A stretch of 47,276 nucleotides of DNA from a virus (Duplodnaviria > Caudoviricetes): the IMG/VR virus record IMGVR_UViG_3300038379_000405, positions 1 through 47,276 of that record; one strand, written 5' to 3'. This document shows positions 1 through 46,810 of this stretch, one piece after another (position 1 is the first letter of the stretch; each line of letters starts with the position of its first letter). A model generated the notes under the pieces. That model ran no database searches. It was not told the DNA's origin and saw nothing but the letters and a program-made list of their open reading frames with translations. Position numbers and translations under genes: made by a program.

Positions 1-45
1 TGGGACCCGGACGACGGCAACTTCTACATCAAGGTCGAGGAGTAA
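1..45 (+). CDS. 3' end fragment of the beta-helix/FN3 minor tail gene (full copy 41852-43882)
   Basis: Translates WDPDDGNFYIKVEE*, identical to the C-terminus of 41852..43882. Confidence 0.85.
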   Translation, partial: WDPDDGNFYIKVEE

Positions 46-48
46 CCG

Positions 49-450
49 ATGGCATCAGCATCCGACTACGTTGAGCAGGCAACCCTCGACTTCTGGTTCG
101 ACCAGGACACGATCACCGCCCCAGCCACCTACTACGTGGCGGTGTTCACCACCGCATCCTCCGACTCGGCCGGTGGCACCGAACCGTCGGGGAACGCCTA
201 CGCCAGGGTGGCGAAGACGAACGGCGCGACCGACTGGTCCCGCACCGGTTCGGTGTTGTCGAACGCCACCGCGATCACGTTCCCGGCCCCCACCCCGAAC
301 GCGTGGGGGACGTTGACCCACTGGGGTCTGTTCGACGCGGCGACCGACGGGAACCTCATGTTCCACGCGCCCCTCACCAACTCACGGTCAACCACCGCCG
401 GCGTCGCCGTCACCTTCTCGGTCGGCGCCCTCACCATCAGCGTCGACTAG
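49..450 (+). CDS. Small virion/tail-fibre-associated protein
   Basis: 133 aa; YVAVFT..GGTEPSG..YARV..NATAITFP..WGTLTHWGLFDAAT.GN pattern typical of small phage tail fibre proteins; paralog of 27094..27486. Confidence 0.7.
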   Translation: MASASDYVEQATLDFWFDQDTITAPATYYVAVFTTASSDSAGGTEPSGNAYARVAKTNGATDWSRTGSVLSNATAITFPAPTPNAWGTLTHWGLFDAATDGNLMFHAPLTNSRSTTAGVAVTFSVGALTISVD

Positions 451-465
451 CCGCACGAACGCGCG

Positions 466-2274
466 ATGGCGCTGACACCCGACACCCTCCTCACCCCCGA
501 CACCTTCCTCACCCCCGACGGGGAGATCGTCACCCCGGTGGAGGTGACGTTCACCGCCACCGGTGACCTCACGTTCGTCCCGGAGGAGGTGAGCGTCAAC
601 GCCGACCTGGTGTTCAGCGGGTGGGCGACCGGTGCGGCCGCCCCCGAGGATGCGGTGCTGGCCGGCTCATCGGCGGGCAGCCAGGACCGCCGCCCCCAGG
701 TGATGGTCCTATTGAGGGCGGCGGACGGTGACTGGTTGTCGGTCGGCACCGCCGCCGCCGCCGGTGTGTTCCCCGAACAGGTGACGACGTCGGCGAACGA
801 GTCGGGGCCGGACACCTGCTCGTTCGTGTTGCGCCGCCGCCCGGGGTTGGGGTGGCCGGACCTCACCGCCTTCAACCAGGCGGAGATCCTGATCGACGGG
901 TCCCCCGTGTGGGGTGGCCGCATCTGGGAGGCGCCGCTGTCGAGCGGTGGCGAGGACGTCATCGCCGTCCAGGGCCGCGGGTGGCAGTACCACCTCGACG
1001 ACGACGTCATCGCCCGCGTCTACGCCCACACCAACCTCACCGACTACCGCGACCACCGTCAGGCCGACCCCTCATCCGACCTCACCCTCCACACCGCCGG
1101 CGCGAACGTCCAGGCCAGCGGCGGGCTGATCCAACTGATCTGGCCGGCCCTGTACACCGTCGCCCTCAACCACGTAATCCACATCATCTTCGACGCCGGT
1201 GTCGCCCGCCTGCGGCGCGCCGTCGTCACCTGGGAGCGGATCGGGGTGAGCGCCAGCGACATCACCCTCTACAGCCGCGGCAGCGACCTCCTGTCGGGGG
1301 CGTCGGGGGATGACGGCACCGCCGCCCAGTCCTCAGCGTCCGGGACGATCAGCCACACCTTCTCCGCCGACCGGCGCTACCACCACGTGTTCCTCTACTA
1401 CGGTGGGGCCGGTGGGGCGTTCGGCCAGGACCAGGGCGTGCGGATCACCAGCATCAAGACGTTCGGGTCCGCCTCCTGGGAGTCGGGTGGCGTGTCGGTC
1501 CTCACCTCCGACGACGTCATCGGCAACGTGTTGGCGAGCGGCGCCGTCCCCCTCCTGTCCACCGACACCAGCCTCATCGCCGCCGGTTCGTTCGCGATCC
1601 CAGACCTCGCCCCCAACGGGTACCAGACGCCACGCCAGCTGATCGCCGCCGCCAACGCCTACGAGGGCAACCTCGTCGGCGTCGACGCCCAACGGGTCCT
1701 GTTCAGCCGCGAACGCGACACCGTCGCCACCGTGGAGGCGAACCCCACCGGCGGGTTCGCATTCCAGGACGCCACCTCCAACTCGGCGGAGGAGATCTAC
1801 AACCGGGTGGTCGTCCAGGGCACCGCCCCCGACGGCACCCCCGTCCTGGAGGTGCGGACCGCCACCAGCAGCCTGCTCACCCGGCAGGGGTTCACCCGCA
1901 CCGCCACCCTCAACGTGTCATCCGCCGTCACCGCCGCCGCCGCACAGGTGTTGGGTGACGTGTGGCTCGCCCAGTATTCGCAGCCGAAGTTCAAGGGGAC
2001 CGCCACCTTCCAGGGACACGGATCCGTCCGCCTCACCAACGGTGGCGGCATCCACCCATCCCAGCTCGTCCTGTTCGCCGGCCGCCTCATCCGCATCCCG
2101 ATCGTCGACCCGGCGACGGGGGCGTGGACGCGGGACTGCCTCATCAAAGCCGTCCGTTACGACCATGACTCCGAGACGGCGGTGGTGGAGCTCGACAACG
2201 AACGCGGGAACTTCGCGACCCTCCTCGAGCGGTACGGTGTCGATGTCGGCCAGTCGTTGGCGAGGACTGGATGA
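466..2274 (+). CDS. Minor tail protein (tail-tip/hub-like)
   Basis: 602 aa; VWGGRI, GRGWQYHLDD and IYNRVVVQG motifs typical of siphovirus tail-tip proteins; last gene before lysis module. Confidence 0.65.
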   Translation: MALTPDTLLTPDTFLTPDGEIVTPVEVTFTATGDLTFVPEEVSVNADLVFSGWATGAAAPEDAVLAGSSAGSQDRRPQVMVLLRAADGDWLSVGTAAAAGVFPEQVTTSANESGPDTCSFVLRRRPGLGWPDLTAFNQAEILIDGSPVWGGRIWEAPLSSGGEDVIAVQGRGWQYHLDDDVIARVYAHTNLTDYRDHRQADPSSDLTLHTAGANVQASGGLIQLIWPALYTVALNHVIHIIFDAGVARLRRAVVTWERIGVSASDITLYSRGSDLLSGASGDDGTAAQSSASGTISHTFSADRRYHHVFLYYGGAGGAFGQDQGVRITSIKTFGSASWESGGVSVLTSDDVIGNVLASGAVPLLSTDTSLIAAGSFAIPDLAPNGYQTPRQLIAAANAYEGNLVGVDAQRVLFSRERDTVATVEANPTGGFAFQDATSNSAEEIYNRVVVQGTAPDGTPVLEVRTATSSLLTRQGFTRTATLNVSSAVTAAAAQVLGDVWLAQYSQPKFKGTATFQGHGSVRLTNGGGIHPSQLVLFAGRLIRIPIVDPATGAWTRDCLIKAVRYDHDSETAVVELDNERGNFATLLERYGVDVGQSLARTG

Positions 2275-2318
2275 CCACCCCACCCGGTGCCGCGGTGAGC
2301 GGTGGGGCGGCCCAGTGA

Positions 2319-2555
2319 ATGGACGACCCACGGGACAGGTTCTTCAAGCCGCCGCCGGAGCAGCGCCCGCGACGGATGCCGGTCTACGACGTGCTGTGGA
2401 AGCGGGTCACCCAGGCGGTCGGCCTGCTGATCGCCGTCGTCGAGTTCACGGTCGCATCGGCGGCGGGCCGGCCGGTGGACCAGAACGTCCTCCTGTTCGC
2501 AGCGATGCTGATCGGCCTCCCCCTCGCGGCACGCCGTGGTGGCGGCGGCACGTGA
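2319..2555 (+). CDS. Small membrane protein (lysis region)
   Basis: 78 aa, two hydrophobic segments; conserved in second copy 46156..46389. Confidence 0.65.
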   Translation: MDDPRDRFFKPPPEQRPRRMPVYDVLWKRVTQAVGLLIAVVEFTVASAAGRPVDQNVLLFAAMLIGLPLAARRGGGGT

Positions 2556-2628
2556 CCCTCATCGTCTACCTCGCGGTGTTCGCCGTCGCCCAGGTCGTCG
2601 TCGTCCTCCACCGGATGGGGGTGGTCCT

Positions 2629-2975
2629 GTGAGGAAACCATCGTCCCGCGCGGTCGACATGTCCGCCCACGTCGTCGGCGTCGTCGCCCTCGTAGCGATC
2701 CTCACGGTGTTCGTGTTCGGCACAAGCAGGGACGACAACCAGGACGACAACCGCCGCGACATCGCCTGCGCGAACGTCAGGTTCAGCGCCCGCCTCGTCA
2801 GCTACTTCGACGGCCGCTCATCCTCATCGACAGACGCATCGGCACCCCCGACGAGCTGTCCACCGACCGCCAGGACCGCCGGAACCTCACCGAACTGCTC
2901 ATCGCATCCCAGGGGCTCGGGGCGGACCTCGACGGGGTGTGCGGTCCGCTGCCACCACTCGAAAAGGACCCGTGA
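2629..2975 (+). pseudogene. Frameshifted copy of membrane-anchored protein (intact at 46463..46810)
   Basis: 347 nt versus 348 nt for the intact copy; restoring one C near 2817 gives ...GRLILIDRRIG...CGPLPPLEKDP*, colinear with ...GRLDRVDERIG...CGPLPQLDKEP*. May be a sequencing error. Confidence 0.7.
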
Positions 2976-2977
2976 GA

Positions 2978-3706
2978 ATGCACACCTACCGGTCGCTGCC
3001 GGCGGCCCACACCAGCGGACCCCGTCCCGCGCCACCCACCCTCGTCGTCGTCCACTGCACCCAGGGGGCGACGGCTGAGGGGGCGGCCCGCTGGTTCGCG
3101 AACCCCCGTTCCGCCGGGAGCGCCCAAGTGGTCGTCGACGACCATGAAGTGTGGCGGTGCGTCGACGACATGGTCATCGCCTGGCACGCCGTCGGCCACA
3201 ACACCATCGGACTCGGCCTCGAGATCGCCGGGTTCGCCCAATGGACCCGTCAGGAGTGGATGGAACACCAGCCGCGCCTCACCGAAGCCGCCCGCATCCA
3301 CGCCGGCTGGAACGTGAAGTACGGGATTCCACTAGTGGAGTCCACCAGCCGCGGCTACCACAGCCACGCCGGCCTCCCCGGCAACACCCATTGGGACCCC
3401 GGCCCCAACTTCCCATGGGACTTCTATCTCGGGGAGGTCCGCCGATACCTCGCGATCCCCAGCGAACCAGGCCCCAGGCCGTATGGCCGGTCGCTTCGCC
3501 TCTACCTCCCCAACGGCAAACGATACGGGGGGTGGACGACGGAGGAATCCGCCGGGTTCGACGGCCCAGCCCTCGGCCCCCTCAAGTGGTTGGCACGGCA
3601 GGATGCGGCGAAGCCGGGAACCGTCCTCACATGGCGTGGCGGCCGATTCGACAAACCCGATGACCTCCCCATGGTCGCCGCGACGATCCTCAACCGAACG
3701 GAGTGA
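2978..3706 (+). CDS. Endolysin, N-acetylmuramoyl-L-alanine amidase (Amidase_2-like)
   Basis: VVVHCT, AWHA, IGLGLEIAG, H..H.DPG..FPW zinc-amidase motifs; ATG at 2978. Confidence 0.9.
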   Translation: MHTYRSLPAAHTSGPRPAPPTLVVVHCTQGATAEGAARWFANPRSAGSAQVVVDDHEVWRCVDDMVIAWHAVGHNTIGLGLEIAGFAQWTRQEWMEHQPRLTEAARIHAGWNVKYGIPLVESTSRGYHSHAGLPGNTHWDPGPNFPWDFYLGEVRRYLAIPSEPGPRPYGRSLRLYLPNGKRYGGWTTEESAGFDGPALGPLKWLARQDAAKPGTVLTWRGGRFDKPDDLPMVAATILNRTE

Positions 3707-3710
3707 ACTA

Positions 3711-4010
3711 GTGAGTGACCAGACGACCCCCACCATCGGCCTCGGGACCGTCAGCGCCATCGGTGGCGTCATCGCAGCCGGGGCGGCGTTCCTCACCGCC
3801 GCCATCGACGCCGGGTTGGATGACACCCCCTTCTACAGTGACCCAGGGGTGACCACCCTGTTCGTCACGTTCATCGGTGCTGTCGCCGCCCTGTTCGCCG
3901 GCCGGTCCTACCAGGCGGGGAAGCTCACCGAAGCCGCCGCCCCGCCGCCCCCCGCGAACGTCGAGGTGGATGGCCTGCCGGTGGACGCCCATGAGGGGGA
4001 GACCCTCTAG
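3711..4010 (+). CDS. Putative holin
   Basis: 99 aa with two transmembrane-like segments, directly after the endolysin. Confidence 0.6.
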   Translation: MSDQTTPTIGLGTVSAIGGVIAAGAAFLTAAIDAGLDDTPFYSDPGVTTLFVTFIGAVAALFAGRSYQAGKLTEAAAPPPPANVEVDGLPVDAHEGETL

Positions 4011-4762: not shown

Positions 4763-5070
4763 GGGACCTGATCGACATCCTCCGCGGCTTCCGCGACGAG
4801 GCCGACGCCACCCGTCGGAGACAGTGGGGAACCGAAGACCTGCCGCAGCTCCGCGAGCGGTTCAGCCTGTGGCGGCGGCTGCGCCGAGTGGCGAGGGACA
4901 ACGCCCGCGATGCGCGACGCGCCCTCCGGGCCACCGAGGACCCGAAACGCGGCCACGTCGTGAACCGGGTCGCTCCGAGCCTACGTAAAGAGCGGTCCGT
5001 CCCAAATGGTGGCCCGAGAAACATCCGCCGGTCGATGGCAGTCTGGCATGACGTGAAGGAGCGGCGGTGA
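4759..5070 (+). CDS. Hypothetical basic protein
   Basis: 103 aa, overlapping start/stop at both ends. Confidence 0.55.
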   Translation: MRDLIDILRGFRDEADATRRRQWGTEDLPQLRERFSLWRRLRRVARDNARDARRALRATEDPKRGHVVNRVAPSLRKERSVPNGGPRNIRRSMAVWHDVKERR

Positions 5071-5849
5071 TGGAGCCGGCCGTGAATACCCTCCCCGCAG
5101 ACCTCCGCCTCGCCAGGGGCAGCCACCATCCACCGAACGGTGGGTTTGAGGCGTGTGTGATGGAGGCCGTCGCCTACGTCGCCGGTGAGCCGTGGACGGA
5201 CCACCCGAAGTGCGCGAGCCCCGTGATCGGGGCGTTCCTCCGCTCCTGGAACGACGCGATGAACGATGATGACCGGCAGATGCTCCTGCCGCTCATCCCG
5301 CGTCTGGTCGGCACGGCCTCCACCAGGGATGTGGAGGGGCGGCGGGCGTGGATGGCGACCGACTGGCTGGTCCGGGAGTGCGCCCCCGCGTGGCTCCGGT
5401 TGGCCGGCCTGAACGACCACGCCCACACGCTGGAGCAGCTCGCCGCACTCACCGACGCATCCTCGGCGCGTGCGGCGCAGCCGACGATCGTGGAGGCCCG
5501 GAAGGCCGGGGACGCCGCCTGGGCCGCCGCCAGGGCCGCCGCCAGGGCCGCCGCCTGGGACGCCGCCATGGCCACCGCCTGGGACGCCGCCATGGCCGCC
5601 GCCGGGGACGCCGCCTGGGCCGCCGCCTGGGCCGCCGCCTGGGACGCCGCCATGACCACCGCCGGGGACGCCGCCTGGGCCGCCGCCTGGGCCGCCGCCG
5701 GGGACGCCGCCTGGGACGCCGCCTGGGCCGCCGCCAGGGCCGCCGCCTGGGACGCCGCCTGGGCCGCCGCCTGGGCCGCCCTCCAGCCGACCGTCAACGC
5801 CCTGCAGGTGTCAGCACTCACCCTAGTGGACCGGATGGTGGAGGCGTGA
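5067..5849 (+). CDS. Phage protein with AW(A/D)A tetrapeptide repeats
   Basis: N-terminal L..GSH....ACVMEAVAY..GEPWTDHP.C domain followed by Ala/Trp repeat tract. Confidence 0.8.
   Translation: MMEPAVNTLPADLRLARGSHHPPNGGFEACVMEAVAYVAGEPWTDHPKCASPVIGAFLRSWNDAMNDDDRQMLLPLIPRLVGTASTRDVEGRRAWMATDWLVRECAPAWLRLAGLNDHAHTLEQLAALTDASSARAAQPTIVEARKAGDAAWAAARAAARAAAWDAAMATAWDAAMAAAGDAAWAAAWAAAWDAAMTTAGDAAWAAAWAAAGDAAWDAAWAAARAAAWDAAWAAAWAALQPTVNALQVSALTLVDRMVEA
5505..5780 (+). repeat. 12-bp coding tandem repeat (GCCGCCTGGGAC variants)
   Basis: About 23 units encoding AWAA/AWDA/AGDA/ARAA/AMAA. Confidence 0.9.
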
Positions 5850-15961: not shown

Positions 15962-16561
15962 GTGAACGTCACGCTCATCCTCAACGGCGCCACCGACCAC
16001 GGCGGGTCGCCACTCGTCATGCACAACGAGCGGCTCGCCGACCCCCTCGACGACTACACCCGCGCCGTCGCGAAGATCAGCAAGAAGCGCAACAAGACGG
16101 AGGCCGACCACATGGAGATCGCCCGCCTCGAGTGGCACGGCGGCCTCTACACCAACGGCAACGGCCCGTGCCTGCCCGCCTGGAACATCATCCGGTGCCT
16201 CCAGGACGGCGGCACCCGCCACAAGAAGGGACGCGACGTCATCCGCGGCGTCTACCCCCTCGTCCCCCACGTCGACCTCACCTACGACGGCGACGTCATC
16301 CGCGACCCCGACGAGATGTGGAAGGCGGGGACGTTCGGCCTGCGTAAGACGGTGGGGGTGCAGCGCAGCCGCACCGTCCGCACCCGCCCCATCTTCCGGG
16401 AGTGGCGGGCGGAGCTCCCCGTCGAAGTCGACCCCGTCATCTTCGACCTCGACACCCTCCGCAACATCTGGACGGACGCCGGCAAGTACGCCGGCCTGGG
16501 GGAGATGCGACCCGTCTACGGCCGGTTCGAGGCGACGATCCGTGAGGAGGACCAGTCGTGA
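15962..16561 (+). CDS. Stand-alone Cas7/RAMP-like protein adjacent to pentamer array
   Basis: 199 aa; beta strand then SPLVMHN, LPAWNI..CL helix, RTRP.F..W, C-terminal glycine-rich loop AGKYAGLGEMRPVYGRF, as in RAMP-fold (Cas7/Csm3-group) proteins. Confidence 0.7.
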   Translation: MNVTLILNGATDHGGSPLVMHNERLADPLDDYTRAVAKISKKRNKTEADHMEIARLEWHGGLYTNGNGPCLPAWNIIRCLQDGGTRHKKGRDVIRGVYPLVPHVDLTYDGDVIRDPDEMWKAGTFGLRKTVGVQRSRTVRTRPIFREWRAELPVEVDPVIFDLDTLRNIWTDAGKYAGLGEMRPVYGRFEATIREEDQS

Positions 16562-16737
16562 CCCCCTTCCAGGAGGTGCTTGACCGGATGGCGTCGGCGA
16601 CGAGCGTCATCCGCACCCGCACCGAGCACTCCGAGCGGCTGCAGCGTCACGGTGACGGCTCCGCAGCCGCCGACCAGCTGCGTCGCCTCATCGGCGACTT
16701 GGAGCGCATCGCCGCTGACCTCGAGGGGAGGCGGTAG
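16558..16737 (+). CDS. Small helical protein (59 aa), not in ORF track
   Basis: GTG overlaps upstream TGA with GAGGAGG RBS; MTPFQEVLDRMASATSVIRTRTEHSERLQRHGDGSAAADQLRRLIGDLERIAADLEGRR*. Confidence 0.7.
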   Translation: MTPFQEVLDRMASATSVIRTRTEHSERLQRHGDGSAAADQLRRLIGDLERIAADLEGRR

Positions 16738-16775
16738 GCTCGATGCCCTCGCGTGGCTGGGCTCACCTCCCACAC

Positions 16776-17304
16776 GCCGCGGCACGGCTCATCCGTGCCG
16801 CGGCACACGCGAGGCCCGGCGCGGCGTGCCACGCCGAGGAATGGCATGGCGTGGCCCCCCATGTCATGGCGGGCCCAGGCGCGGCAGGATCAGGCGCGGC
16901 ACGGCACGGTGCGGCGAGGCATGGCTAGGCCAGGCGCGACATGGCCCCCCTACATCAGGCCGCGGCGCGGCACGCCTCGGCTCGGCACGGCACGGCCAGG
17001 CCTGGCACGGCCCGGCTCTGCTCCCCGAGGCTGGTCAGTGGCAAGACAGGGCTGGCCCCGGCATGGGCTCGGCTGGGCAAGGCCCCCCTTTGCCGGGCTC
17101 GGCGGGTCCTGGCACGGCTCGGCAGGGCGCGGAATGGCACGGCTTGGCTCCCCCACTACTCGGCCAGGCCGGACTCGGCCGGGCAAGTCAGGGCCAGGCA
17201 CGGCCGGGCGCGGCACGGCCGGGCTCGGCGCGGCAAGGCATGGCTCCCCTCTTCTCGGCCCAGCCCGGCTGGGCAAGGCACGGCTGGACAAGGCTCGGCT
17301 CCCC
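16776..17304 (+). ncRNA. Putative guide-RNA array of GGC-NN pentamers in seven blocks
   Basis: About 90 units with constant GGC-like triplet and variable dinucleotide; each block ends GGCYCCCC. The repeat is certain, RNA function is inferred. Confidence 0.7.
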
Positions 17305-17329
17305 TAACCCTCAACGTCGAGGTTGACTG

Positions 17330-18001
17330 ATGGCTGAACGGCGGATGCTGCACCGGAAGGTGTCGGTCAGCGAAGACCTCGCCGAACTCCGCTCCCGCCA
17401 CGGCGCCGACGCCGTCGTCTTCTACACGTGGCTCATCCCCCACCTCGACCGGTGGGGATGCTGCCCCGCCAACCCCGGCACCCTCAGGGCGCTCGTCATC
17501 CCACGTTTCGCCGGCGTCACCGACGAGAAGGTCGGCCGGTGGGTCGCGTGGATGGTCCGTCGGGGGATGCTCGAGAAGGTCACCGGACCAGCCGGTGACA
17601 AGGGGTTGAGGTGCCCAGGATTCCACGACCACCAGCGTGGCACCGAGTTCCAGAAGGAGTCCCCCAGCCGCTACGAACCAGCCGACATCACCGAACGGTG
17701 GATCAGGACTGGACGCAAACCAAAAGTAGCCGATTTGCGGCGTGGTCGGCGACCAGTCTCCGACCAGGTCGCGAGCAGGTCGGTGCGAAGGGAAAAGAAG
17801 GAACTTCTTTTCCCCCCTACCCCCCAGGGCGACCCGGACACGGAGGCGCCCCCTGGAGGTGAACATCACCGGCTCGCTCCGCGGCCGGATGTTCACCACG
17901 ACGACGCCACAACCAGAACCACCAACGGCGAACTCGCCAGCGCAGCCGACGTCCTCGCAGCGATGCTCCACCGACAAGAAGCGAGCGCAGCCGAAACATG
18001 A
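17330..18001 (+). CDS. Putative replication initiator (replisome-organizer-like)
   Basis: MAERRML...S..L....A..FYTWLIPH.D.WG N-terminus, wHTH-like core, F..HQ; GAGGT RBS. Confidence 0.65.
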   Translation: MAERRMLHRKVSVSEDLAELRSRHGADAVVFYTWLIPHLDRWGCCPANPGTLRALVIPRFAGVTDEKVGRWVAWMVRRGMLEKVTGPAGDKGLRCPGFHDHQRGTEFQKESPSRYEPADITERWIRTGRKPKVADLRRGRRPVSDQVASRSVRREKKELLFPPTPQGDPDTEAPPGGEHHRLAPRPDVHHDDATTRTTNGELASAADVLAAMLHRQEASAAET

Positions 18002-27486: not shown

Positions 27487-29441
27487 TGGCAACGTGGGCT
27501 GACGGCACCACCGAGGCGCGGACGGCGGCGTCGATCGAGGCTGCCCGCACCCCCGCGACCATCAGCGTCAAAGACCAGGAGTACGGGGCGGTCGGCGACG
27601 GCACCACCAACGACACCGCCGCGGTCCAGGAGGCGGTCGCCGCCCTCACCACCGGCGACAGCCTCTACTTCCCGCCGGGGTCCTACCGGATCGCCACCGC
27701 CGGCGACGCCATCACCCTCGACGGAATCAGCGACGTGTCCATCGTGTTCGCCGTCGGCGCCGAGCTGCTGATGGACAACCTCGACGGGTCGGATGAGGGC
27801 ACCGGACATGGGGTCAAGGTCGTCGGCGCCTGCTCGAACGTCCGCCTCGACCGGGTCCGGGTGAGGTGGGCGTCCACACCCGCCGCGCGGTCCCTCGGCA
27901 GCGGCTTCCACATCCTCGGCTACCCCCGCGACAGCGGCGTGCAGGCGGGGTGGACCGGTTCGACGGGGACCTGCGCCGACGTCCATCTGATCGACTGCAC
28001 CACGATCAACGCCCCCCAATGCGGAGCGATCTTCATGGGGTGCCTGCGCCCCCGGGTGGAGAACTTCACCCCGGTGGACACATTGGCGGACGGCCTCCAC
28101 TTCAACGCCTGCAAGGACCCGCGCGTCAACGGCGAGACCGCCGACAACACCGGCGACGACTCCCTCGCATTCGTCACCTACTACCAGGCGAACGGCAACA
28201 ACCCCACCACCGACATGGACGCCGGCCAGGTGGGGCCGTTCGGGTTGCAGACCGTCGCCGACAACCCGTGGGCGAACGGCGGGGCGCAGGCGTCGAACAT
28301 CGCCGTCCGCGACGGCGGCGCGAATGGGGTGCGGATCGCCGGGCTCTACAACGCCTCCATCACGGGCGTCACCGTCGCCGAGAAGTCGGTGGGGGTGATC
28401 CTCGACTCGGGTGAGGCGGGCGGCGGGTTCGACTGGACGTATCTCGCCAGCCACGGCGTCGTCGTGTCCGGGGTGGCGGTGAGCGACTGCGACACCGGGG
28501 TCCACGCCCGCGTCTACAACAGCGACAGCAGTGACTCCGCGACCTACTGGCGCCACGACGTCCTGTTCTCCGACCTCGTCCTCCGGGACTGCGACAACCG
28601 CTGTCTACGGACCGAAGGTTCAGGCGGCCAAAACTCAGTCATCGCCGGCGTGTCGTTCCGTGGGGTACGCGCCTACGGGTCCGACGTCAGTTTCTCCAGC
28701 TACCGTGAGGGTCACGTCACCGATGTCCGCGTCGTCGGTGGTGGCCTCCAGTTCTACGGCAAGGACGTCGACCACACTGGGGCGATGTCGGGGCTCGCCC
28801 GCCACAACGTCACCGTCGATGACGTCACCTGCGACGGTGAACCCGTCCTGTTCCAGGACTGCCGCGGCTACAGCATCGGGAACGTCCGCTCCGACAACAG
28901 CGCCACCGACGGGGTGATCTTCAACCGGGTGTTGGAGGCGACCGTCGAGTCGCTGCGGGTGGTCCTCGCGAACCGCGGCAACACCGGCACCGTCAGGGCG
29001 ATCCTCATCACCAAAGGCCAGCACCTCCACATCGCCCGGGCGGAGGTCGACCATGACGCGAACACCACCACCACCTGGCAGTCACTCGAGCTCGGTGGGG
29101 GGGACGGCACCGACCGCAGCCACGACGTCGACGTCACCCTCCTGTACCGCAACACCATCAACGGCAGTGGGTCGGGGATCACCGTCCAAGGCGGCGGCGA
29201 CGCCCCGTACGAATGGATCTACCGGGCCCGCTGGTACAACGCCGGTGAGGTGTCCCCCGTGTGGCGACAGGAGCATTACGGCAACGTCACCCGGGTGGAG
29301 CATTTCGTCCTCGACGCGTCCCCGGAGAACGACATCACCGCCCCCGTCGGCTCAACCTGCGCGAACTACAACGGTGGGGCGGGAACCAGCCTCTACATCA
29401 AGGAATCCGGGACGGGCAACACCGGGTGGGCGGGGGTCTAG
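27486..29441 (+). CDS. Pectate-lyase-like beta-helix spike/depolymerase
   Basis: SVKD..YGAVGDGTTNDTAA, LYFPPGSY, ADG.H, TGDD; C-terminal APVGS...LYIKESGTGNTGW. Confidence 0.85.
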   Translation: MATWADGTTEARTAASIEAARTPATISVKDQEYGAVGDGTTNDTAAVQEAVAALTTGDSLYFPPGSYRIATAGDAITLDGISDVSIVFAVGAELLMDNLDGSDEGTGHGVKVVGACSNVRLDRVRVRWASTPAARSLGSGFHILGYPRDSGVQAGWTGSTGTCADVHLIDCTTINAPQCGAIFMGCLRPRVENFTPVDTLADGLHFNACKDPRVNGETADNTGDDSLAFVTYYQANGNNPTTDMDAGQVGPFGLQTVADNPWANGGAQASNIAVRDGGANGVRIAGLYNASITGVTVAEKSVGVILDSGEAGGGFDWTYLASHGVVVSGVAVSDCDTGVHARVYNSDSSDSATYWRHDVLFSDLVLRDCDNRCLRTEGSGGQNSVIAGVSFRGVRAYGSDVSFSSYREGHVTDVRVVGGGLQFYGKDVDHTGAMSGLARHNVTVDDVTCDGEPVLFQDCRGYSIGNVRSDNSATDGVIFNRVLEATVESLRVVLANRGNTGTVRAILITKGQHLHIARAEVDHDANTTTTWQSLELGGGDGTDRSHDVDVTLLYRNTINGSGSGITVQGGGDAPYEWIYRARWYNAGEVSPVWRQEHYGNVTRVEHFVLDASPENDITAPVGSTCANYNGGAGTSLYIKESGTGNTGWAGV

Positions 29442-30760: not shown

Positions 30761-31258
30761 ATGGCGAACACCTACATCGCGGGGGCATCCCACACCGCCG
30801 CCGGCGTCGTCACCGAGATCTCCACCCTCACCGGGTTGGCGACGATGCTGCAGGTCGCAACCCCCGCCACCACCCAAATCGAGGTGGTCGCCTGGGGCAT
30901 CAGCTTCAAAGGGGTCACCGCCTCCGACGCCCCCGGGATGTGTTACCTCCTCGACGGTGACGTCGGCATGTCGGGGGCGACGAGCCTCACCCCCGACCTG
31001 TGGGGCAACCCCGGCGCCCCCGCATCGTTGTGTGTCGGTGGCACCGGCGCCACCAGCGTGTCCGACGGGGCCGTCACCGAGGGGACGATCACCGCGTCCC
31101 GCCTCCTCGACGCCCAGGAAGTCCACCCCCAAACCGGGTATGCGGTGTGGTACCCGCCGACCGACCGGCCGCGGGTGGCGGTGTCACGGTTCCTGCGGGT
31201 CAGGGTGAACTTCACGGTCGCGGTTTCCTGTCTGCCGTGGGTGATCTGGAGCGAGTGA
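30761..31258 (+). CDS. Putative virion protein
   Basis: 165 aa from ATG 30761, GGGAG RBS. Confidence 0.6.
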   Translation: MANTYIAGASHTAAGVVTEISTLTGLATMLQVATPATTQIEVVAWGISFKGVTASDAPGMCYLLDGDVGMSGATSLTPDLWGNPGAPASLCVGGTGATSVSDGAVTEGTITASRLLDAQEVHPQTGYAVWYPPTDRPRVAVSRFLRVRVNFTVAVSCLPWVIWSE

Positions 31259-31268
31259 GTAGCCGCTG

Positions 31269-32789
31269 ATGGCCCGCACCTCGGCGAACACCCTCCGCCG
31301 GTTCCGTCCCTCCGCCGCCTCCGCCGTCCACACCGGCGTGTCGGCGGTGGCGGTCGTCGTCACCCCCGCCTCGACGGGTGTCAGCACCCGCCTCGCCGCA
31401 TCCGCCGCCGCGGTCATCGTCACCCCCGCCTCGGCGGGGACGAGGACGACGTTCGGGGCGTCCGCCACCCCCATCCTGGTCACCCCCGCGTCGGCTGGTG
31501 TCCGCATCCGCCTCGCCGCGAGCGCCACCGCGATCATCGTGACCCCCGCGTCCGCCGGCTCGAGGGCGACGTTCGGCACGTCCGCGACCAGCGTCGTCGT
31601 CACCCCTGCGAGTTCGGGGACCGCCACCAGGTTCGCCGCCTCCGCCGCCGGCATCGTCGTGACACCCGCGTCGACTGGGACCCGTTCGACGTTCGCGGTG
31701 TCCGCCACCAGCGTCGTCGTCACCCCGGCGTCCGCCGGGTCGCGCCTGATCATCGCCGCATCCGCCGCGTCGATCGTGGTGACCCCCGCCTCCACCGGCA
31801 ACCACACCGGGGTTGGGGCAGCCGCCACCCCCATCGTCGTCACCCCCGCAGCCGCCGGCACCCGCAGGACGTTCGCGGCGTCCGCCACCCCCATCGTCGT
31901 CACCCCCGCATCCTCTGGGGTCCGCACCCGGTTCGGTGCGAGTGCGGTACCCCTGTCGGTCCTCCCCGCCTCCACCGGGTTCAAAACGACGTTCGGGACG
32001 TCCGCAACCCCCATCCTCGTCACGATCACCACCGAGGTGGGGGCGACCCTCGGCGCCAGCCACACCAGCATCACCGTCACCCCCGCCTCCGCCGCGACCC
32101 GTGAGACGTTCGCCGTCTCGGCGGTGGCGGTCGTCGTCACCCCCGCCTCCGCCGGCCACCGCCACCACACCGGCGCCTCCGCCACCAGCATCCTGGTCAC
32201 CCCCGCATCGAGCGGGTTCAGGACCCGCCTCGGCGTCGCCGCCGCCAGCATCGTCGTCACCCCCGCATCGGCGGGGACGCGCCTCCACATCGCGGCGGCC
32301 GCCACCCCCGTCGTCGTCACCCCAGCGTCCGCGGGAACCAGGACCGCCCACGGCGCCGCCGCCGCCCCGGTCATCGTCACCCCCGCCTCCGCCGGCAGCC
32401 ACATCGGTGTCGGCGCCGCCGCATTCCCGGTTGTCGTCACCCCAACCACATCCGGGTTCGCCCTCCGTGTCGGGGCGTCCGCGACACCGGTCGTCGTCAC
32501 CCCCACCTCCAGCGGCTACCGGCTCCACACCGCCGCGGCGGCCGTCCCGATCGTCGTCACGGTCACGTCGGAGGGGGACGCGTTCACCCCACCGCCCAAC
32601 ATCCCTGCGACCGCCACCTCCCTGGTGTACCCCGTCGGGGATGCCGACGCCGCCGTCATCGCCGCCGTCGTCGCCACCGCCACCGCCCAGGCGGAGGCGG
32701 ACGCCGCCACAACCACCGGCCGGCCGGTCGATGCGGAATCCACCGCCACCCCCCGCGGTGGCGCCACCTCGCAGATCGGGGTTCCATGA
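31269..32789 (+). CDS. Fibre-like protein with 20-aa repeats
   Basis: About 21 repeats of (I/V)VVTPASxG... Confidence 0.75.
   Translation: MARTSANTLRRFRPSAASAVHTGVSAVAVVVTPASTGVSTRLAASAAAVIVTPASAGTRTTFGASATPILVTPASAGVRIRLAASATAIIVTPASAGSRATFGTSATSVVVTPASSGTATRFAASAAGIVVTPASTGTRSTFAVSATSVVVTPASAGSRLIIAASAASIVVTPASTGNHTGVGAAATPIVVTPAAAGTRRTFAASATPIVVTPASSGVRTRFGASAVPLSVLPASTGFKTTFGTSATPILVTITTEVGATLGASHTSITVTPASAATRETFAVSAVAVVVTPASAGHRHHTGASATSILVTPASSGFRTRLGVAAASIVVTPASAGTRLHIAAAATPVVVTPASAGTRTAHGAAAAPVIVTPASAGSHIGVGAAAFPVVVTPTTSGFALRVGASATPVVVTPTSSGYRLHTAAAAVPIVVTVTSEGDAFTPPPNIPATATSLVYPVGDADAAVIAAVVATATAQAEADAATTTGRPVDAESTATPRGGATSQIGVP
31350..32580 (+). repeat. 60-bp coding tandem repeat
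   Basis: GTCGTCACCCCCGC core recurs every 60 nt (one 57-nt unit). Confidence 0.9.
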
Positions 32790-36692: not shown

Positions 36693-39254
36693 ATGGCTAG
36701 CGGTCGCGTCCGGATAGACATCGACGCCGACGCCGGTGGCCTGCGCCGCGGCGTGTCGGACGCGGAGGGTCAGCTCCACCGCCTGAACGGTGTCGGCAGG
36801 ACGGCGATGGCCGGGTTGACGAAGGTCGCCGCCGCCGCAACCGTCGCACTCGGCGTCGGGTTCGCCGCCGCCCTCCGCACCGGCACCAGTGAACTGCTCG
36901 AGCAGGAGAAGGCATCCGGCCGCACCAAGGCCGTGATCGAATCGACGGGTGCCGCCGCCGGGGTGACGGCCAGACATGTCGAGGACCTCGCCTCGAGCAT
37001 CCAGCGGGCGACCGGCTCCCAGGATGACCTGGTGCAGTCGGGAGCGAACGTCCTGCTGCAGTTCACCAAGATCGGGGCGAAGGGCGGGATCTTCGACCGC
37101 GCCACCATCGCCGCCAACGACTTCGCGGTGGCGACCGGGAAGGACATGCCGGCCGCCGCGAAGGCCCTCGGCAAGGCGTTGGACGACCCGATCAAGGGGC
37201 TCGGCCTCCTGTCGCGTGAGGGCATCAAGTTCACCGACCAGGAGAAGGAACGCCTCAAGACGCTCACCGAGACCAACCGGATCCAGGAGGCGCAGGCGGC
37301 GATCCTCGACAAGGTTGAGGAGCGGTTCAAGGGCACCGCCGCCTCCGAGGGTGAGGCGACGGAGAAGATCCAGCAGGCCCAGCGCCGATGGGAGGACATG
37401 TCGGAGGCGCTGACCCAGAAACTGCTGCCGGTCCTGTCGGATGTGCTGGACAAGGGGATCGCCCTCCTCGACTGGTTCGACGGCCTGTCGGGGGCGCAGA
37501 AGAAGCTGGTGACGTTCAGCGCCGTCGGGGTCGCCGCCCTCGCCCCGTTGGCGAAGCTGATGGGGGCGGTCGGGACGCTCCGAAACGCCGGTGGCGTCCT
37601 CGCAGGTGGTGGCGGCGCCCTGGCGGGGCGTGCCGGTGGCCCAGTCCCGGTGTTCGTCACCAACCCGGGTTTCGCCGGCGGGATCGGCGGTGGCGGGGTT
37701 GGTGGGCGTGCCGGGGCAGCCATCCCCGGTATCGGCACCCTCGCCGGCGGTGGGATCGGCCTTCCACTCGCCGGGGGCGCCGCATTGATCGCCGGCGGCA
37801 TCGGGTTGAACACCCTGCTCGACCGGACCGGCATCGGCGGTGGGATCCTCCCCAGCGCCCAGGAGGCGGCCCGCAACACCGAACGTGCGCAGGCGGCGGT
37901 GATCGCCGCGTGGCGCCGTGGACGCCCCGCCCTCCAGGCGGAGTTGCAGAAGTCGATGGTGATCCCCGCCGGCCCACTCGCCGACCGGTTCGCCGACGCC
38001 GCCGACGATGCGATCGACAAGTTCCGGGGGGCCGTCACCAAGGGTGGCCCGAAGGTGAAGAACAGCGCGAAAACGGTGGTTGATGCTGCTGCGGCGAGCC
38101 TCCGGGGGTTGGAGCCGACCGCCCAACGCCTCGCATCGGATTCGATGATCCGCATGTCGCAGACGCTCGAGAATCAGGGACGCCTGCCGAGGGGGGCGAC
38201 GGTCAAACTGGTGCAGGCGATCGAAGCGGAGTTCGGGAAGCTACCGGGGGCTGCGACGACGGCGGCTCAGGCGGTGGCTGCAGCGATAAGGGCGATCCTC
38301 CCCGCCCTCTCCGAGGTCAGGGCCGGGATTGAGAACGTCTACAGCCTGCTGCGGAACCCGCCGAAGCCCCCGCCGATTTATGTCCCCGGCATCAGCCGCG
38401 GCAGGCAGTCGGCTGATGCGACCGTCGGTGGCGTCCGGTTCTTCCCCGGCGGGAACGCGCTGTCCCCCACCGACCGCGCCGGCCTCGTCATCGAGGGCCG
38501 AGCCCGCAACGACAGCCTCCAGGACAAAAGGATCCGCGCCGAGGTCGCCGCCAGGTCGGCGGCTGCGGGGGTGACGAACCCGGATGAGGTCGCCCTCCGC
38601 GCTGAGGAGGCGGTGCTCCAGCAGCGCCGCCGGGAGGTGATCGCCAACGGGGCGACCCTCCGGCGGGCGCAGGAGCAGGTGAAGGCGATCATCACCCGCC
38701 GCAAGAAGAACCGCGCCGCCGCGTACAAACGGCTGCGGGGTGTGAAGGGCAACAGCGACGAGGCGAAGAAGCGGCGTGAGTCGATCCTCGATTCCATCCG
38801 CGGCCACAACCAGGCGATCCGCGACCGCTACGACGAGTTGAACGCCCTCATCCGCCAGGCCGCCGACCTCGAGGCGGAGGCGAGGGAACTCGACTTCGAC
38901 ATCGGGGAGTTGGCGAAGGAGATCGCCAACACCCCTGACGTCCTCCCCGACGACACCGGCACCACCCCAGACACCGCCCCGGCTGCCCCGACCGGACCGA
39001 CCCCCGACCAGCAGGCCCAACTCGACCAGGCGGCCGCCCGCGCCGCCGCCGCCGAGTCGAACCTCGCCGGCAGCAACGCCTTCTTCAAAGCCCTCCGCGA
39101 GTCCTCCACGATCGACCCGGGGTCGGGTGGGCAGACGGTGGTGGTGAACATCGGTGGCACCGTCGTCGAAGCGGGGCGTGTCGCCTCCTGGATCACCAGC
39201 GCCCTCGCCCAACAGGGTGTCTCAGCCCCCGGCGTGTTCGCGAGCTCCGCGTGA
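36693..39254 (+). CDS. Tape measure protein
   Basis: 853 aa Ala/Gly-rich helical; ALGKALDDP..GL..L.R.GI.FT motif; PVPVFVTN. Confidence 0.9.
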   Translation: MASGRVRIDIDADAGGLRRGVSDAEGQLHRLNGVGRTAMAGLTKVAAAATVALGVGFAAALRTGTSELLEQEKASGRTKAVIESTGAAAGVTARHVEDLASSIQRATGSQDDLVQSGANVLLQFTKIGAKGGIFDRATIAANDFAVATGKDMPAAAKALGKALDDPIKGLGLLSREGIKFTDQEKERLKTLTETNRIQEAQAAILDKVEERFKGTAASEGEATEKIQQAQRRWEDMSEALTQKLLPVLSDVLDKGIALLDWFDGLSGAQKKLVTFSAVGVAALAPLAKLMGAVGTLRNAGGVLAGGGGALAGRAGGPVPVFVTNPGFAGGIGGGGVGGRAGAAIPGIGTLAGGGIGLPLAGGAALIAGGIGLNTLLDRTGIGGGILPSAQEAARNTERAQAAVIAAWRRGRPALQAELQKSMVIPAGPLADRFADAADDAIDKFRGAVTKGGPKVKNSAKTVVDAAAASLRGLEPTAQRLASDSMIRMSQTLENQGRLPRGATVKLVQAIEAEFGKLPGAATTAAQAVAAAIRAILPALSEVRAGIENVYSLLRNPPKPPPIYVPGISRGRQSADATVGGVRFFPGGNALSPTDRAGLVIEGRARNDSLQDKRIRAEVAARSAAAGVTNPDEVALRAEEAVLQQRRREVIANGATLRRAQEQVKAIITRRKKNRAAAYKRLRGVKGNSDEAKKRRESILDSIRGHNQAIRDRYDELNALIRQAADLEAEARELDFDIGELAKEIANTPDVLPDDTGTTPDTAPAAPTGPTPDQQAQLDQAAARAAAAESNLAGSNAFFKALRESSTIDPGSGGQTVVVNIGGTVVEAGRVASWITSALAQQGVSAPGVFASSA

Positions 39255-41851: not shown

Positions 41852-43882
41852 ATGGCTGATCGGATCGTCAACCCCGGTGGGTTCGCCGCCGCCTACAGCG
41901 CCGCCAACCCGTTCGACCGGCTCCTCCTCCAACCCGGACTCCACGACCTGGGGACCGGGCTGTTCACGTTCAGCAAATCGGACATCATCGTCGAGGCGGC
42001 GGCGGGATGGTCGGCGGGCCAGTGGGTGACCGGCAGCAACGGCCATGTCATCACCAACGTCCCCGTCCGCCTCCGCGGCCACATGCAGATGAACGGTTCC
42101 CGCAACACGTTCCGGGGGTTCGGCTGGTACGACTCCGCCGACACCGGACCCGGCACCTGCATCGTCCTCGGCAGCGACAACGCCTTCGAGGACTTGGTGT
42201 GCCGCAACGCGTTCGGCGGCACCGACGCGGGGGTCACCACCAACGACGCCGGCAGCATCTTCTTCACCATCGGCGGCCCCACCCGCCCCTCCAACAACGC
42301 GTTCCGCCGCATCCGGTTCCGTCTGTGCGGCAACCCCGCCGGCGGCGACCACGACCACCCGTTCTACATCAAGAACTGCACCGCCACCCTCATCGAGGAC
42401 TGCATCAGCTACGACCAGAACGACGGGTGGATGTTCCACTTCTACCCCAACGGCGACAACACCACCGTCAACCGTTGCCTCGCCTACAACGTCACCGGGG
42501 GGGTGACGTTCTCCGGGGCGAACGACTCGTCCACCGGGCTGTCGGGGTGTCTCGCGAGCGACGCGAACATCCTCAGCAACTGCATCCTCGTGAAGGCGAA
42601 CCGCCGGTGGGGCGTCGAGTCGTACTGGGGGTGCTCAACCGTCGGGATCAACAACTCCGTCCGCAACTCGTGCGTCTACCAGCCCCCCGGGGCGTCCGGC
42701 GCCGGGCGGATCAGCACCACCAACGGTGGGTTCACCACCAGCGGGATCATCAACAGCGACCCCCTCTTCGCTGACCCCGCGAACGGTGATTTCACCCTCT
42801 CCGCCAACAGCCCGGCGTTGGGGATGGGCCCCACACAGATCCAGCCGGGTGGGGCGCCACCCCAGCCCCCGCCACCGGTCACCGCCCTCGCCGCCTCCGA
42901 GCTCGCCGACCCCCTCCGCGTCCAACTCGACTGGACGAACCCGGTGGACATGACCGGCCGGGTGGTGAACATCTACCGGTCAACCGCCGGGTTCATCACC
43001 AACACGGCGGGGGTGACGCCACTGACCACCACGACCGACGACAGCTACATCGACTCGGCGGTCGCGGCGACCACCACCTACTACTACACCGCCCAGGTCG
43101 CGGAGGGTGGGTTGGTGTCATCCATCGCCACCCAGGCGTGGACGACGGGGAGTCCCACCGGGCCGCCACCCCCGGATGACCCCACCGGCGGGGAGGAGTT
43201 CGTCGGCGTCAACGTCATCGGCACGACGTGGCGGGGGATGAGCGGCGACTACAAACGGGCGTCACGCCACCAGCTGCCGACGGGGAAACGGATGGTCGGG
43301 TTCGGTGCCTACCTCCGCGGCGTCGGATCCAGCGGCACAACCGCCTGCAGACCGTTCGTCTACGACGACTCCACCGGTGCCCTGCTGGGGACGTTCACCG
43401 CCGAGGACATCAGCGACACCCTCGCCGAACAGTGGGTGGAGTTCACCCCCGACGACCCGATCGACGGGCCACCCAACGGCGGCACCATCAGGATCGGGAT
43501 GCACACCGAGGCGGGGAGCACCCTCGAGGTCGCCACCAACGTCGTGACGGGGGCACTCGCCCACGGCGCCGACACCTACAGCGATGGGACCGCCGCGACG
43601 TGGACGACCCCGTCAGCAGACAACTACCTGTTGTCGGCGTATGTGTTGACGGAGGACCAGCCGTCGTCGGCGGACCTCGCCGGCTCGGGGACCGTGAACT
43701 TCTTCGCGTCGGCGAACGCGACGGAGGTCCCACCCGCCGTCAACGCCATCACCGACGTCGAATACCGCGACGTCGGCGACATCCGCACCTACTCGGTCCC
43801 AGCCCCGTTCCAGTCGTCCACCGGCGCCGAGTTGGTGTGGGACCCGGACGACGGCAACTTCTACATCAAGGTCGAGGAGTAA
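41852..43882 (+). CDS. Minor tail/receptor-binding protein with right-handed beta helix and FN3-like domain
   Basis: HDH..Y, Asn/Cys-periodic beta helix, DPLFADPANGDFTL..NSPA, VQLDWTNP...YYY. Confidence 0.7.
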   Translation: MADRIVNPGGFAAAYSAANPFDRLLLQPGLHDLGTGLFTFSKSDIIVEAAAGWSAGQWVTGSNGHVITNVPVRLRGHMQMNGSRNTFRGFGWYDSADTGPGTCIVLGSDNAFEDLVCRNAFGGTDAGVTTNDAGSIFFTIGGPTRPSNNAFRRIRFRLCGNPAGGDHDHPFYIKNCTATLIEDCISYDQNDGWMFHFYPNGDNTTVNRCLAYNVTGGVTFSGANDSSTGLSGCLASDANILSNCILVKANRRWGVESYWGCSTVGINNSVRNSCVYQPPGASGAGRISTTNGGFTTSGIINSDPLFADPANGDFTLSANSPALGMGPTQIQPGGAPPQPPPPVTALAASELADPLRVQLDWTNPVDMTGRVVNIYRSTAGFITNTAGVTPLTTTTDDSYIDSAVAATTTYYYTAQVAEGGLVSSIATQAWTTGSPTGPPPPDDPTGGEEFVGVNVIGTTWRGMSGDYKRASRHQLPTGKRMVGFGAYLRGVGSSGTTACRPFVYDDSTGALLGTFTAEDISDTLAEQWVEFTPDDPIDGPPNGGTIRIGMHTEAGSTLEVATNVVTGALAHGADTYSDGTAATWTTPSADNYLLSAYVLTEDQPSSADLAGSGTVNFFASANATEVPPAVNAITDVEYRDVGDIRTYSVPAPFQSSTGAELVWDPDDGNFYIKVEE

Positions 43883-43885
43883 CCG

Positions 43886-44287
43886 ATGGCATCAGCATCC
43901 GACTACGTTGAGCAGGCAACCCTCGACTTCTGGTTCGACCAGGACACGATCACCGCCCCCGCCACCTACTATGTGGCGGTCTTCACCACCGCGTCATCCG
44001 ACTCGGCTGGGGGCACCGAACCGTCGGGGAACGCCTACGCCCGGGTGGCGAAGACGAACGGCACGACCAACTGGTCCCGCACCGGTTCGGTGTTGTCGAA
44101 CGCCACCGCGATCACGTTCCCCGCCCCCACCCCCAACGCGTGGGGGACGTTGACCCACTGGGGTCTGTACGACGCGGCGACCGGCGGGAACCCCATGTTC
44201 CACGCCCCCCTCACCAACTCCCGGTCCACCACCGCCGGCGTCGCCGTCACCTTCTCGGTCGGCGCCCTCACCATCAGCGTCGACTAG
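43886..44287 (+). CDS. Small virion/tail-fibre-associated protein (allele 2)
   Basis: Near-identical to 49..450. Confidence 0.7.
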   Translation: MASASDYVEQATLDFWFDQDTITAPATYYVAVFTTASSDSAGGTEPSGNAYARVAKTNGTTNWSRTGSVLSNATAITFPAPTPNAWGTLTHWGLYDAATGGNPMFHAPLTNSRSTTAGVAVTFSVGALTISVD

Positions 44288-44302
44288 CCGCCTACCCGCG
44301 CG

Positions 44303-46111: not shown

Positions 46112-46155
46112 CCACTGCACGTTATGCCGCGGTGAGCGGTGGGGCGGCCCGGTGA

Positions 46156-46389
46156 ATGGACGACCCCAGGGACAAGTGGTTCAAACCACCGCCACCCGAG
46201 CGGCGGCGGATGCCGGGATACGACGTTCTGTGGAAGCGGGTCACCCAGGCGGTCGGCCTGCTGATCGCGGTCCTGGAGGTCACCCTCTCGGCGGCGGGGG
46301 GGATGCCGGCGGACCAGAACGTCCTCCTGTTAGCGGCGATGCTGATCGGCCTGCCCCTCGCCGCACGCCGTGGTGGAGGCGACACCTGA
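46156..46389 (+). CDS. Small membrane protein (allele 2)
   Basis: Homolog of 2319..2555. Confidence 0.65.
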   Translation: MDDPRDKWFKPPPPERRRMPGYDVLWKRVTQAVGLLIAVLEVTLSAAGGMPADQNVLLLAAMLIGLPLAARRGGGDT

Positions 46390-46462
46390 CCCTCATCGCC
46401 TACCTCGCGGTGTTCGCCGTCGCCCAGGCCGTCGTCGTCCTCCACCGGATGGGGGTGGTCCT

Positions 46463-46810
46463 GTGAGGAAACCATCGTCCCGCGCGGTCGACCTGTCAGC
46501 CCACGTCGTCGGCGTCGTCGCCCTCCTCGCGATCCTCGCGGTCACCGTGTTCGGCACCGTCAAAGACAACAGCCAGGACGCCCGGGACCGTGACATCGCC
46601 TGCGCGAACGTCCAGTTCAGCGTCCGCCTCGTCACCTACTTCCAGGGGCGCCTCGACCGCGTCGACGAGCGCATCGGCACCGCGAGGGAACAGCCGATCG
46701 ACCGTGAGGACCGGCGGCGGCTCCTCATCCTCCTCGCCGCCTCCAAGGGCCTCGGTGACGACATCGGCGACGCCTGCGGCCCACTCCCCCAACTCGACAA
46801 GGAACCCTGA
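46463..46810 (+). CDS. Membrane-anchored helical protein, lysis region (intact allele)
   Basis: 115 aa, N-terminal TM, two Cys; stop abuts endolysin ATG. Confidence 0.65.
   Translation: MRKPSSRAVDLSAHVVGVVALLAILAVTVFGTVKDNSQDARDRDIACANVQFSVRLVTYFQGRLDRVDERIGTAREQPIDREDRRRLLILLAASKGLGDDIGDACGPLPQLDKEP

Follow-up and report, generated by a model that had tools for sequence, protein, structure and literature searches.

A compact GGC-NN pentamer array beside a vipr homolog in a high-GC phage: seven predicted vrRNA guides

What is the role of a 492-nt stretch of non-coding phage DNA in which three of every five bases are nearly constant and the other two change from unit to unit? Such a stretch occupies positions 16813–17304 of the window, i.e., the whole 47,276-nt stretch of DNA analyzed here. 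Recorded as viral in IMG/VR and sourced from a freshwater metagenome, the window encodes an endolysin, RecT, terminase, portal, capsid, and tail proteins, and its closest terminases (~29% identical) are from Streptomyces phages. A preliminary description of the DNA, made from the letters alone, had suggested that the array falls into seven blocks, that the blocks are individual guides, and that the run of C closing each of them is a processing or boundary signal. We put the probability at roughly 0.9 that this is the vrRNA guide array of a phage VIPR system, with the seven blocks predicted to be seven separate guides. Systems of this kind were already published in 2026, and the window is a further example, from a high-GC phage.

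The discovery preprint describes a phage-encoded RAMP protein, Vipr, that works with vrRNAs made up of 9–16 YNNGG repeats and, after them, a 3′ tail that does not vary (10.64898/2026.04.26.720920, PMC13142463). As reported there, the vrRNA guides of VIPR are encoded by the GGY/NN pentamer arrays beside vipr genes, each NN dinucleotide base-pairs with DNA, one base being skipped per unit, and competing phages and satellites are transcriptionally silenced by the complex (10.64898/2026.04.26.720920). In the structure described for SUSP1, one protomer binds each repeat, GGY is held by H17, R138, D177, W178, and R179, a 3′ pseudoknot forms the cap, and DNA is engaged 3′ to 5′ along the guide (10.64898/2026.04.26.720927); a third VIPR preprint from 2026 concerns competition (10.64898/2026.10.15.759431). 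The locus in the window is virus-encoded and combines a Vipr protein, residues that hold GGY, GGY/NN units, an intergenic array by vipr, and a 3′ tail. It thus resembles the published systems in having a small phage RAMP beside intergenic tandem GGY/NN pentamers, hypervariable NN, guides that appear capped, and no self-target beyond shuffled guides.

The array and its neighboring genes

The array comprises 86 five-base GGC+NN units in seven blocks, between the + strand ORFs 16558–16737 and 17330–18001. It is intergenic, on the same strand as vipr, begins ~250 nt (252 nt) past the vipr stop, and stops 25 nt short of the following ORF (17330). The two-level arrangement given in the preliminary description is present at these positions, and the checks named there, autocorrelation and per-position entropy modulo 5, reveal a strong 5-nt period with a low-entropy triplet and a high-entropy NN pair. 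Base identity within the array is 0.556 at lag 5 and 0.50–0.57 at lags 10–30, in comparison with 0.22–0.33 at other lags. Entropy is 0.18, 0.85, and 0.32 bits at the three triplet positions vs. 1.96 and 1.80 bits at the NN positions, where all 16 dinucleotides are present. The triplet is fixed with single-base variants, as had been described: 68 of the 86 units carry GGC, and the remainder are GCC (5), GAC (4), GTC (3), GGA (2), and GGT, GAT, TGC, and AGC (one each), such that about one-fifth of units depart from GGY. Non-consensus bases make up 19/258 of the triplet positions vs. 100/172 of the NN positions (Fisher p 1.8e-31). The same period-5 detector finds no second array of this type on either strand of the 47-kb window.

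All blocks are on the + strand, and each is a predicted vrRNA. Block 1 (16813–16860) has 8 variable units and the terminal GGCCCCCC (16853–16860), with a linker at 16861–16867; block 2 (16868–16950) has 15 variable units and the terminal GGCCCCCC (16943–16950), with a linker at 16951–16957. Block 3 (16958–17026) consists of 12 variable units, with a 6-nt step after the first, and the terminal TGCTCCCC (17019–17026), followed by the shortest linker (17027–17028). The 10 variable units of block 4 (17029–17088) include two 6-nt steps and lead to the terminal GGCCCCCC (17081–17088) and a linker at 17089–17095; block 5 (17096–17154) also has 10, and then the terminal GGCTCCCCC (17146–17154) and a linker at 17155–17161. 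Block 6 (17162–17249) is the longest, with 16 variable units, the terminal GGCTCCCC (17242–17249), and a linker at 17250–17256, and block 7 (17257–17304) closes the array with 8 variable units and the terminal GGCTCCCC (17297–17304).

Counted with the terminal unit, blocks 1–7 therefore hold 9, 16, 13, 11, 11, 17, and 9 units. The counts given previously (9, 17, 13, 11, 12, 17, and 9) agree for five blocks and are off by one for blocks 2 and 5, ±1 differences that come down to counting or not counting linker bases. Both 6-nt steps previously noted in block 4 are real, and with the additional one at the start of block 3 there are three register breaks. Seven predicted guides in 492 nt correspond to ~70 nt each, and the 8–16 variable units per block (9–17 in total) compare with the 9–16 units per guide given in the discovery preprint.

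The gene at 15962–16561 (+) encodes a 199-aa, Cas7-like RAMP that we identify from its sequence as a homolog of Vipr, a small stand-alone type of RAMP characterized by an RRM core, a G-loop, and a thumb. Its product matches PDB 36pp_D, “SUSP1 Vipr protein,” with E 4.7e-17 when used alone and E 2.1e-40 with a 21-sequence profile (A1); 36pp is the single solved structure matched to it by sequence. It also matches phrog_4652 (E 4.1e-41), and phiSUSP1 positions 28486–29034 encode a protein 28% identical to it (tblastn). The best Foldseek matches of its AF2 model (pLDDT 83.9) are Csm3/Cas7 chains (best E 5.9e-4, TM ~0.4). In a pairwise alignment, the GGY-holding residues H17, R138, and R179 of SUSP1, which contact G1, G2, and Y3, correspond to H21, R142, and R183 of the window protein, all three invariant in 21 homologs. 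D177 is conservatively replaced by E181, and W178, which stacks on G2 in SUSP1, is M182; four of the five residues are thus kept or conservatively replaced. The G-loop GLGEMRPVYGRF aligns to GVGDWRPRFGRF of SUSP1.

Vipr homologs are frequent in metagenomes (613 at E ≤ 1e-3, many of them 70–77% identical), and the related-locus search found none in genome_contigs. Homologs annotated as hypothetical proteins are also present in Gordonia phage Trine (41% identical to the window protein), Mycobacterium abscessus prophage prophiBWHA-1 (41%), and Pseudomonas phage Medea1 (36%). The RAMP fold and, according to the structure preprint, the use of one protomer per fixed guide step are shared with the Cas7 backbone of class 1 CRISPR-Cas (Csm3 of type III-A), but the window array differs in its 5-nt steps with only two pairing bases. 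No CRISPR-like repeat-spacer array appears in the tandem-repeat (TRF) table of the window, and a PHROGs scan of 29 window proteins detected no cas families.

Directly downstream, a 59-aa ORF at 16558–16737 (+), a candidate vap-like accessory gene, overlaps the vipr stop by 4 nt, an arrangement from which we read translational coupling to vipr. ORFs of 57–79 aa are located at or overlapping the vipr stop in 16 loci, mostly with a 4-nt overlap, and in their alignment R27 is invariant and G32 nearly so. The ORF has a GC3 of 0.90 and is the sole neighbor gene common to related loci. Its AF2 model (pLDDT 84.6) predicts a two-helix hairpin, with helices at residues 3–31 and 34–58. Searches of the 59-aa protein returned no Pfam family and no informative ESM Atlas neighbor (best score 0.78), and it bears no likeness to vap1 of SUSP1. 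It is likely the accessory protein of this clade. The gene order of vipr, coupled downstream ORF, and array is the same in phiSUSP1 (type II; KT454805.2, our locus L113), although the vap1 that follows vipr there encodes 146 aa and is unrelated to the 59-aa ORF.

Block ends and the predicted separation of guides

The sequence GGC[C/T]CCCC closes all seven blocks: GGCCCCCC occurs three times (from 16853, 16943, and 17081), GGCTCCCC three times (17146, 17242, and 17297), and TGCTCCCC once (17019). This corresponds to the invariable 3′ tail of VIPR guides, though it is only ~8 nt long. Linkers after the block ends are 2–8 nt, mostly ~7 nt, so that the tail measures 8 conserved nt, or ~8–15 nt with its linker, and it is mostly unpaired in predicted folds. 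The distance from a terminal GGC to the first GGC of the next block is 15 nt at four of the six junctions and 10 and 16 nt at the other two; since 15 nt equals three units, the register is kept across those four.

The comparison with related phages that the preliminary description had called for can be made among ten loci whose Vipr proteins are 57–77% identical to the window protein, hereafter the close clade. Their 44 block ends have the consensus GGCTCCCC, usually followed by T, and +15 is the commonest position of the following GGY (14/43). The end motif is conserved in these loci and the linkers are not. No guide is common to them, the best 40-nt match (36/40) being mostly scaffold and tail; scaffold and end motif are kept and guide content is never shared, which suggests that whole guides turn over. 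The proposal that guides are bounded or processed at the C-run gains from this conservation of GGCTCCCC(T) at 44 ends with unshared NN. The proposal that each block is a separate guide is likewise favored, as a prediction, by the position of the array beside a Vipr gene, since published VIPR systems use such tracts as separate guides.

Other Vipr clades have other block ends, namely GGCTACC[A/C], GGCTTGGAAC, GGCAGGGA, GGCT[C/T]ATCTAGCC, or, in mycobacteriophages, a one-base-short GGCA|GGC step. On a quick tree of Vipr proteins, with motif labels that are crude whole-locus counts and are shared among kin, motif class changes 13 times vs. a mean of 20.4 for shuffled labels, with 0 of 200 shuffles as low; this shows motif class tracking the Vipr tree as clustering only. 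The window lies in a supported clade of 16 rows, 10 of which use the C-run.

Folding predictions gave little sign of structure within the array. The whole array folds no better than shuffled sequences (z +0.75), and single blocks range from z -2.3 to +2.1 without a common structure, which fits a protein-coated RNA. No pseudoknot can be drawn in the array tails, and no Rfam family was detected anywhere in the window. Between the small ORF and block 1, a perfect 12-bp hairpin at 16776–16804 (+) has a predicted energy of -27.9 kcal/mol (z -5.0, 0/200 shuffles as good). It is a candidate leader, terminator-like or a 5′ boundary, and no hairpin was seen at the equivalent place in the related arrays inspected. 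A scan for sigma-70-like promoters and terminators, which is not tuned to high-GC hosts, found none on the + strand near the array. The only sequencing run with the array sequence is a DNA metagenome.

Among the alternatives, the one that survives best, which we nevertheless consider improbable, is that this is a VIPR array expressed as one long Vipr-coated transcript, in which the C-runs merely interrupt the filament and the whole acts as a multi-segment guide or scaffold. Such a transcript would suit linkers of just 2–8 nt, a GGC register kept at four of six junctions, and the finding of no promoter, terminator, ribozyme, or structured tail between blocks. It would also suit the text of the discovery preprint, which names no maturation enzyme (neither “RNase” nor “matur” appears in it). 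However, the vrRNAs described in that text are discrete, ~100 nt or less with 9–16 units, even in staggered arrays, and the block sizes in the window (9–17 units) fit this range. The conservation of the end motif but not of the linkers also argues for separate guides rather than one continuous transcript.

For seven separate vrRNA guides, the work on SUSP1 and P. fulva suggests how the locus might operate. Transcription of the region would accompany or follow that of vipr. Each pentamer would be occupied by a single Vipr protomer that grips GGC and leaves the NN pair exposed. The NN pairs of the filament would read dsDNA as NN-x-NN-x, the skipped base usually being a codon wobble position, and the outcome would be silenced transcription of a competing phage, prophage, or satellite. 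From the layout in the window we further infer that CCC in place of the next GGY would stop filament growth, that the C-run and the ~7-nt linker would mark the end of one guide and the start of the next, and that the C-run end would stand in for the ~40-nt pseudoknotted tail of the SUSP1 clade.

The ends are where the window departs most from type II systems (the SUSP1/P. fulva clade), whose ~40-nt hairpin and pseudoknot tail and vap1 partner are both absent from the window. The phiSUSP1 locus has one guide upstream and three downstream, mostly with GGT. Each of its guides has its own ~45-nt leader and ~40-nt tail for a length of ~160 nt, in contrast to a window guide of ~70 nt that uses GGC and has an 8-nt end with a ~7-nt linker. 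Because the tail is far shorter than in type II and no pseudoknot can be drawn, guide capping and cutting here go beyond the published data. Besides type II, the discovery preprint names staggered, hammerhead-interspersed, and single array layouts; compact arrays with C-run ends are not described in its text, and the layout may belong to one of the seven VIPR types it defines (10.64898/2026.04.26.720920). Staggered arrays (legend of fig. S18 in that preprint; phages Mattes and Donkeykong, discussed below) likewise place guides head to tail without a structured tail between them, but their boundary is the one-base-short GGCA|GGC unit, with shifts in register, whereas in the window it is a C-run and linker with the register mostly kept.

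Tentatively, the locus might represent a distinct VIPR architecture, a reading that we regard as possible but doubtful. The bare C-run GGCTCCCC would then serve, in place of the pseudoknot cap, as a minimal stop-and-cut signal free of structure and make ~70-nt guides possible, the 59-aa protein would be a Cas11-like small filament subunit, and, since end motifs follow Vipr lineages, tail recognition would co-evolve with Vipr. Three features keep the locus of interest, namely the very short tail, the densely packed guides, and the small coupled ORF. A guide is predicted here to be delimited by only eight conserved bases. If true at the RNA level, this would bear on vrRNA maturation, a subject absent from the text of the discovery preprint, and on the minimum size of a programmable VIPR cassette.

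Linkage of arrays to vipr across loci

A same-strand GGC period-5 array was found in 19 of 20 viral contigs with a Vipr homolog, mostly within ~1 kb of the gene, upstream or downstream; the contig of the one miss (L006) is cut 240 nt past the gene. Similarly, 20 of 24 metagenome Vipr loci have a same-strand array, and the four misses are cut 1–273 nt past the gene. The metagenome set is what is left of 31 returned loci after removal of five that duplicate viral loci (identical length and range) and two partial gene matches. Near-duplicates are common among the fetched loci, and the counts therefore include non-independent cases. Array strand is fixed relative to vipr in 39/39 array-bearing loci, and the sole opposite-strand call, in L030, falls within the + strand array of that locus. 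The only flanking genes common to the loci are vipr and the small ORF. Across 240 kb of five related phage contigs the detector fires solely in vipr loci plus one extra site, a same-strand GGY period-5 call at 50633–50702 of G005 (the record of locus L021), ~9 kb from the vipr locus, which may be a solo vrRNA.

A blastn search against phage records matched the array alone, to GGC-NN arrays of Cheoctovirus Mycobacterium phages. Mattes (L002:2990–3255, 3243–3989) and Donkeykong (L001:2945–3331) have a staggered GGC-NN array just 5′ of a Vipr-like phrog_4652 gene, such that in Mattes this gene is downstream of the array and in the window it is upstream. The mycobacteriophage phrog_4652 protein aligns to the Vipr profile with an hhalign probability of 95.7% and has the G-loop GVGDWRPS. 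The Vipr-like genes of both phages are annotated hypothetical, and the Donkeykong array is annotated as a CDS, gp48. No actinobacterial or mycobacteriophage VIPR is named in the main text or supplement of the discovery preprint (PMC13142463). The window thus adds to VIPR a high-GC phage lineage that is common in metagenomes, and the comparison flags Vipr/vrRNA loci, annotated as hypothetical or spurious CDS, in cultured mycobacteriophages, which offer a tractable host for tests.

The same linkage weighs against a DNA-level element that merely sits beside a RAMP gene, such as a replication origin or field of iterons, an array of protein-binding sites, or a G-quadruplex/i-motif tract. By our own reasoning, G2N3 repeats could in principle form two-tetrad quadruplexes, and the array is located in the early/replication region of the genome, after the exonuclease, RecT, and methyltransferase genes. 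Against these points stand the strand fixed relative to vipr in all 39 array loci, whether the array is upstream or downstream, and the fact that, among flanking genes, only vipr and the small ORF are shared. The combination of a fixed GGC with hypervariable NN is also the RNA code described in the discovery preprint. A DNA-level element is accordingly very unlikely. An origin of replication had been an initial idea, as had an RNA leader for a TRAP-like ring protein, and both were dropped once the Vipr homology appeared.

Least credible of all is that the array is a slippage microsatellite in decay or a protein-coding repeat of low complexity. All three + frames are indeed open across the array (e.g., a 184-aa ORF at 16753–17307), and the similar Donkeykong array is annotated gp48. 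However, codons cannot stay in frame over a 5-nt period, two of every five positions hold the variation (p 1.8e-31), the ORFs over the array all fail the GC3 filter passed by real genes in this 70%-GC phage, and related arrays share scaffold and end motif but no NN, as neither decay nor a conserved protein would predict.

Target search and further features of the window

Targets of the predicted vrRNA guides were scored as published, using the pattern NN?NN? with a 1-nt skip on both strands and a null of shuffled guides; viral_contigs and genome_contigs were scanned with exact patterns only. Below, v1–v7 denote the guides of blocks 1–7. No self-target beyond shuffled guides was found in the window (best v1, 13/16, vs. 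a shuffled maximum of 14), and the guides published in the discovery preprint are also without a self-target (10.64898/2026.04.26.720920). Nor were there targets beyond shuffled guides in the 53 fetched loci (227 kb) or in the five full related phage contigs (240 kb).

Exact scans of viral_contigs gave 0 matches for full-length v5 and v3 and for v6 and v2 cut to the 10 units nearest the 3′ end. With v1 and v7, scanned as 8-unit patterns, there were 16 and 20 matches, located in unrelated genes of viruses with a GC content of 0.32–0.68 and grouping only as near-identical copies. In genome_contigs, four exact scans returned 1, 1, 1, and 4 matches, two of which do not extend past the seed. The full 22/22 match of v5 is in a decarboxylase-like gene of Marinobacter in the wrong codon phase. 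The four v3 matches are Thr/Ser-rich stretches, the best of them (23/26) in a histidine-kinase-like gene and out of wobble phase. Of these seven matches, those that do extend thus sit either in cellular housekeeping or signaling genes, out of wobble phase, or in DNA without a clear coding frame. None is a credible natural target, and all matches were set aside as chance.

Four other features of the window were recorded. ARAGORN calls a 92-nt tRNA-Gly(GCC) at 37684–37775 within the + ORF 36693–39254, which is long for a tRNA and may be false. The 260-aa ORF at 5067–5849 (phrog_3416, unknown function) ends in ~23 tetrapeptide repeats of the AWDA/AWAA type, encoded by a 12-nt repeat at 5505–5780. 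On the – strand, within the + strand structural module, positions 31184–32506 encode a 440-aa ORF made of 60/120-nt tandem repeats (31353–32444) that has no PHROG match. Finally, positions 1–3443 and 43838–47276 are a direct duplication (89% identity over 3454 aligned bases) that covers a 602-aa tail-like gene and the endolysin region; it may reflect a terminal repeat whose copies have diverged, or a circularly permuted genome in whose assembly two strains were joined.
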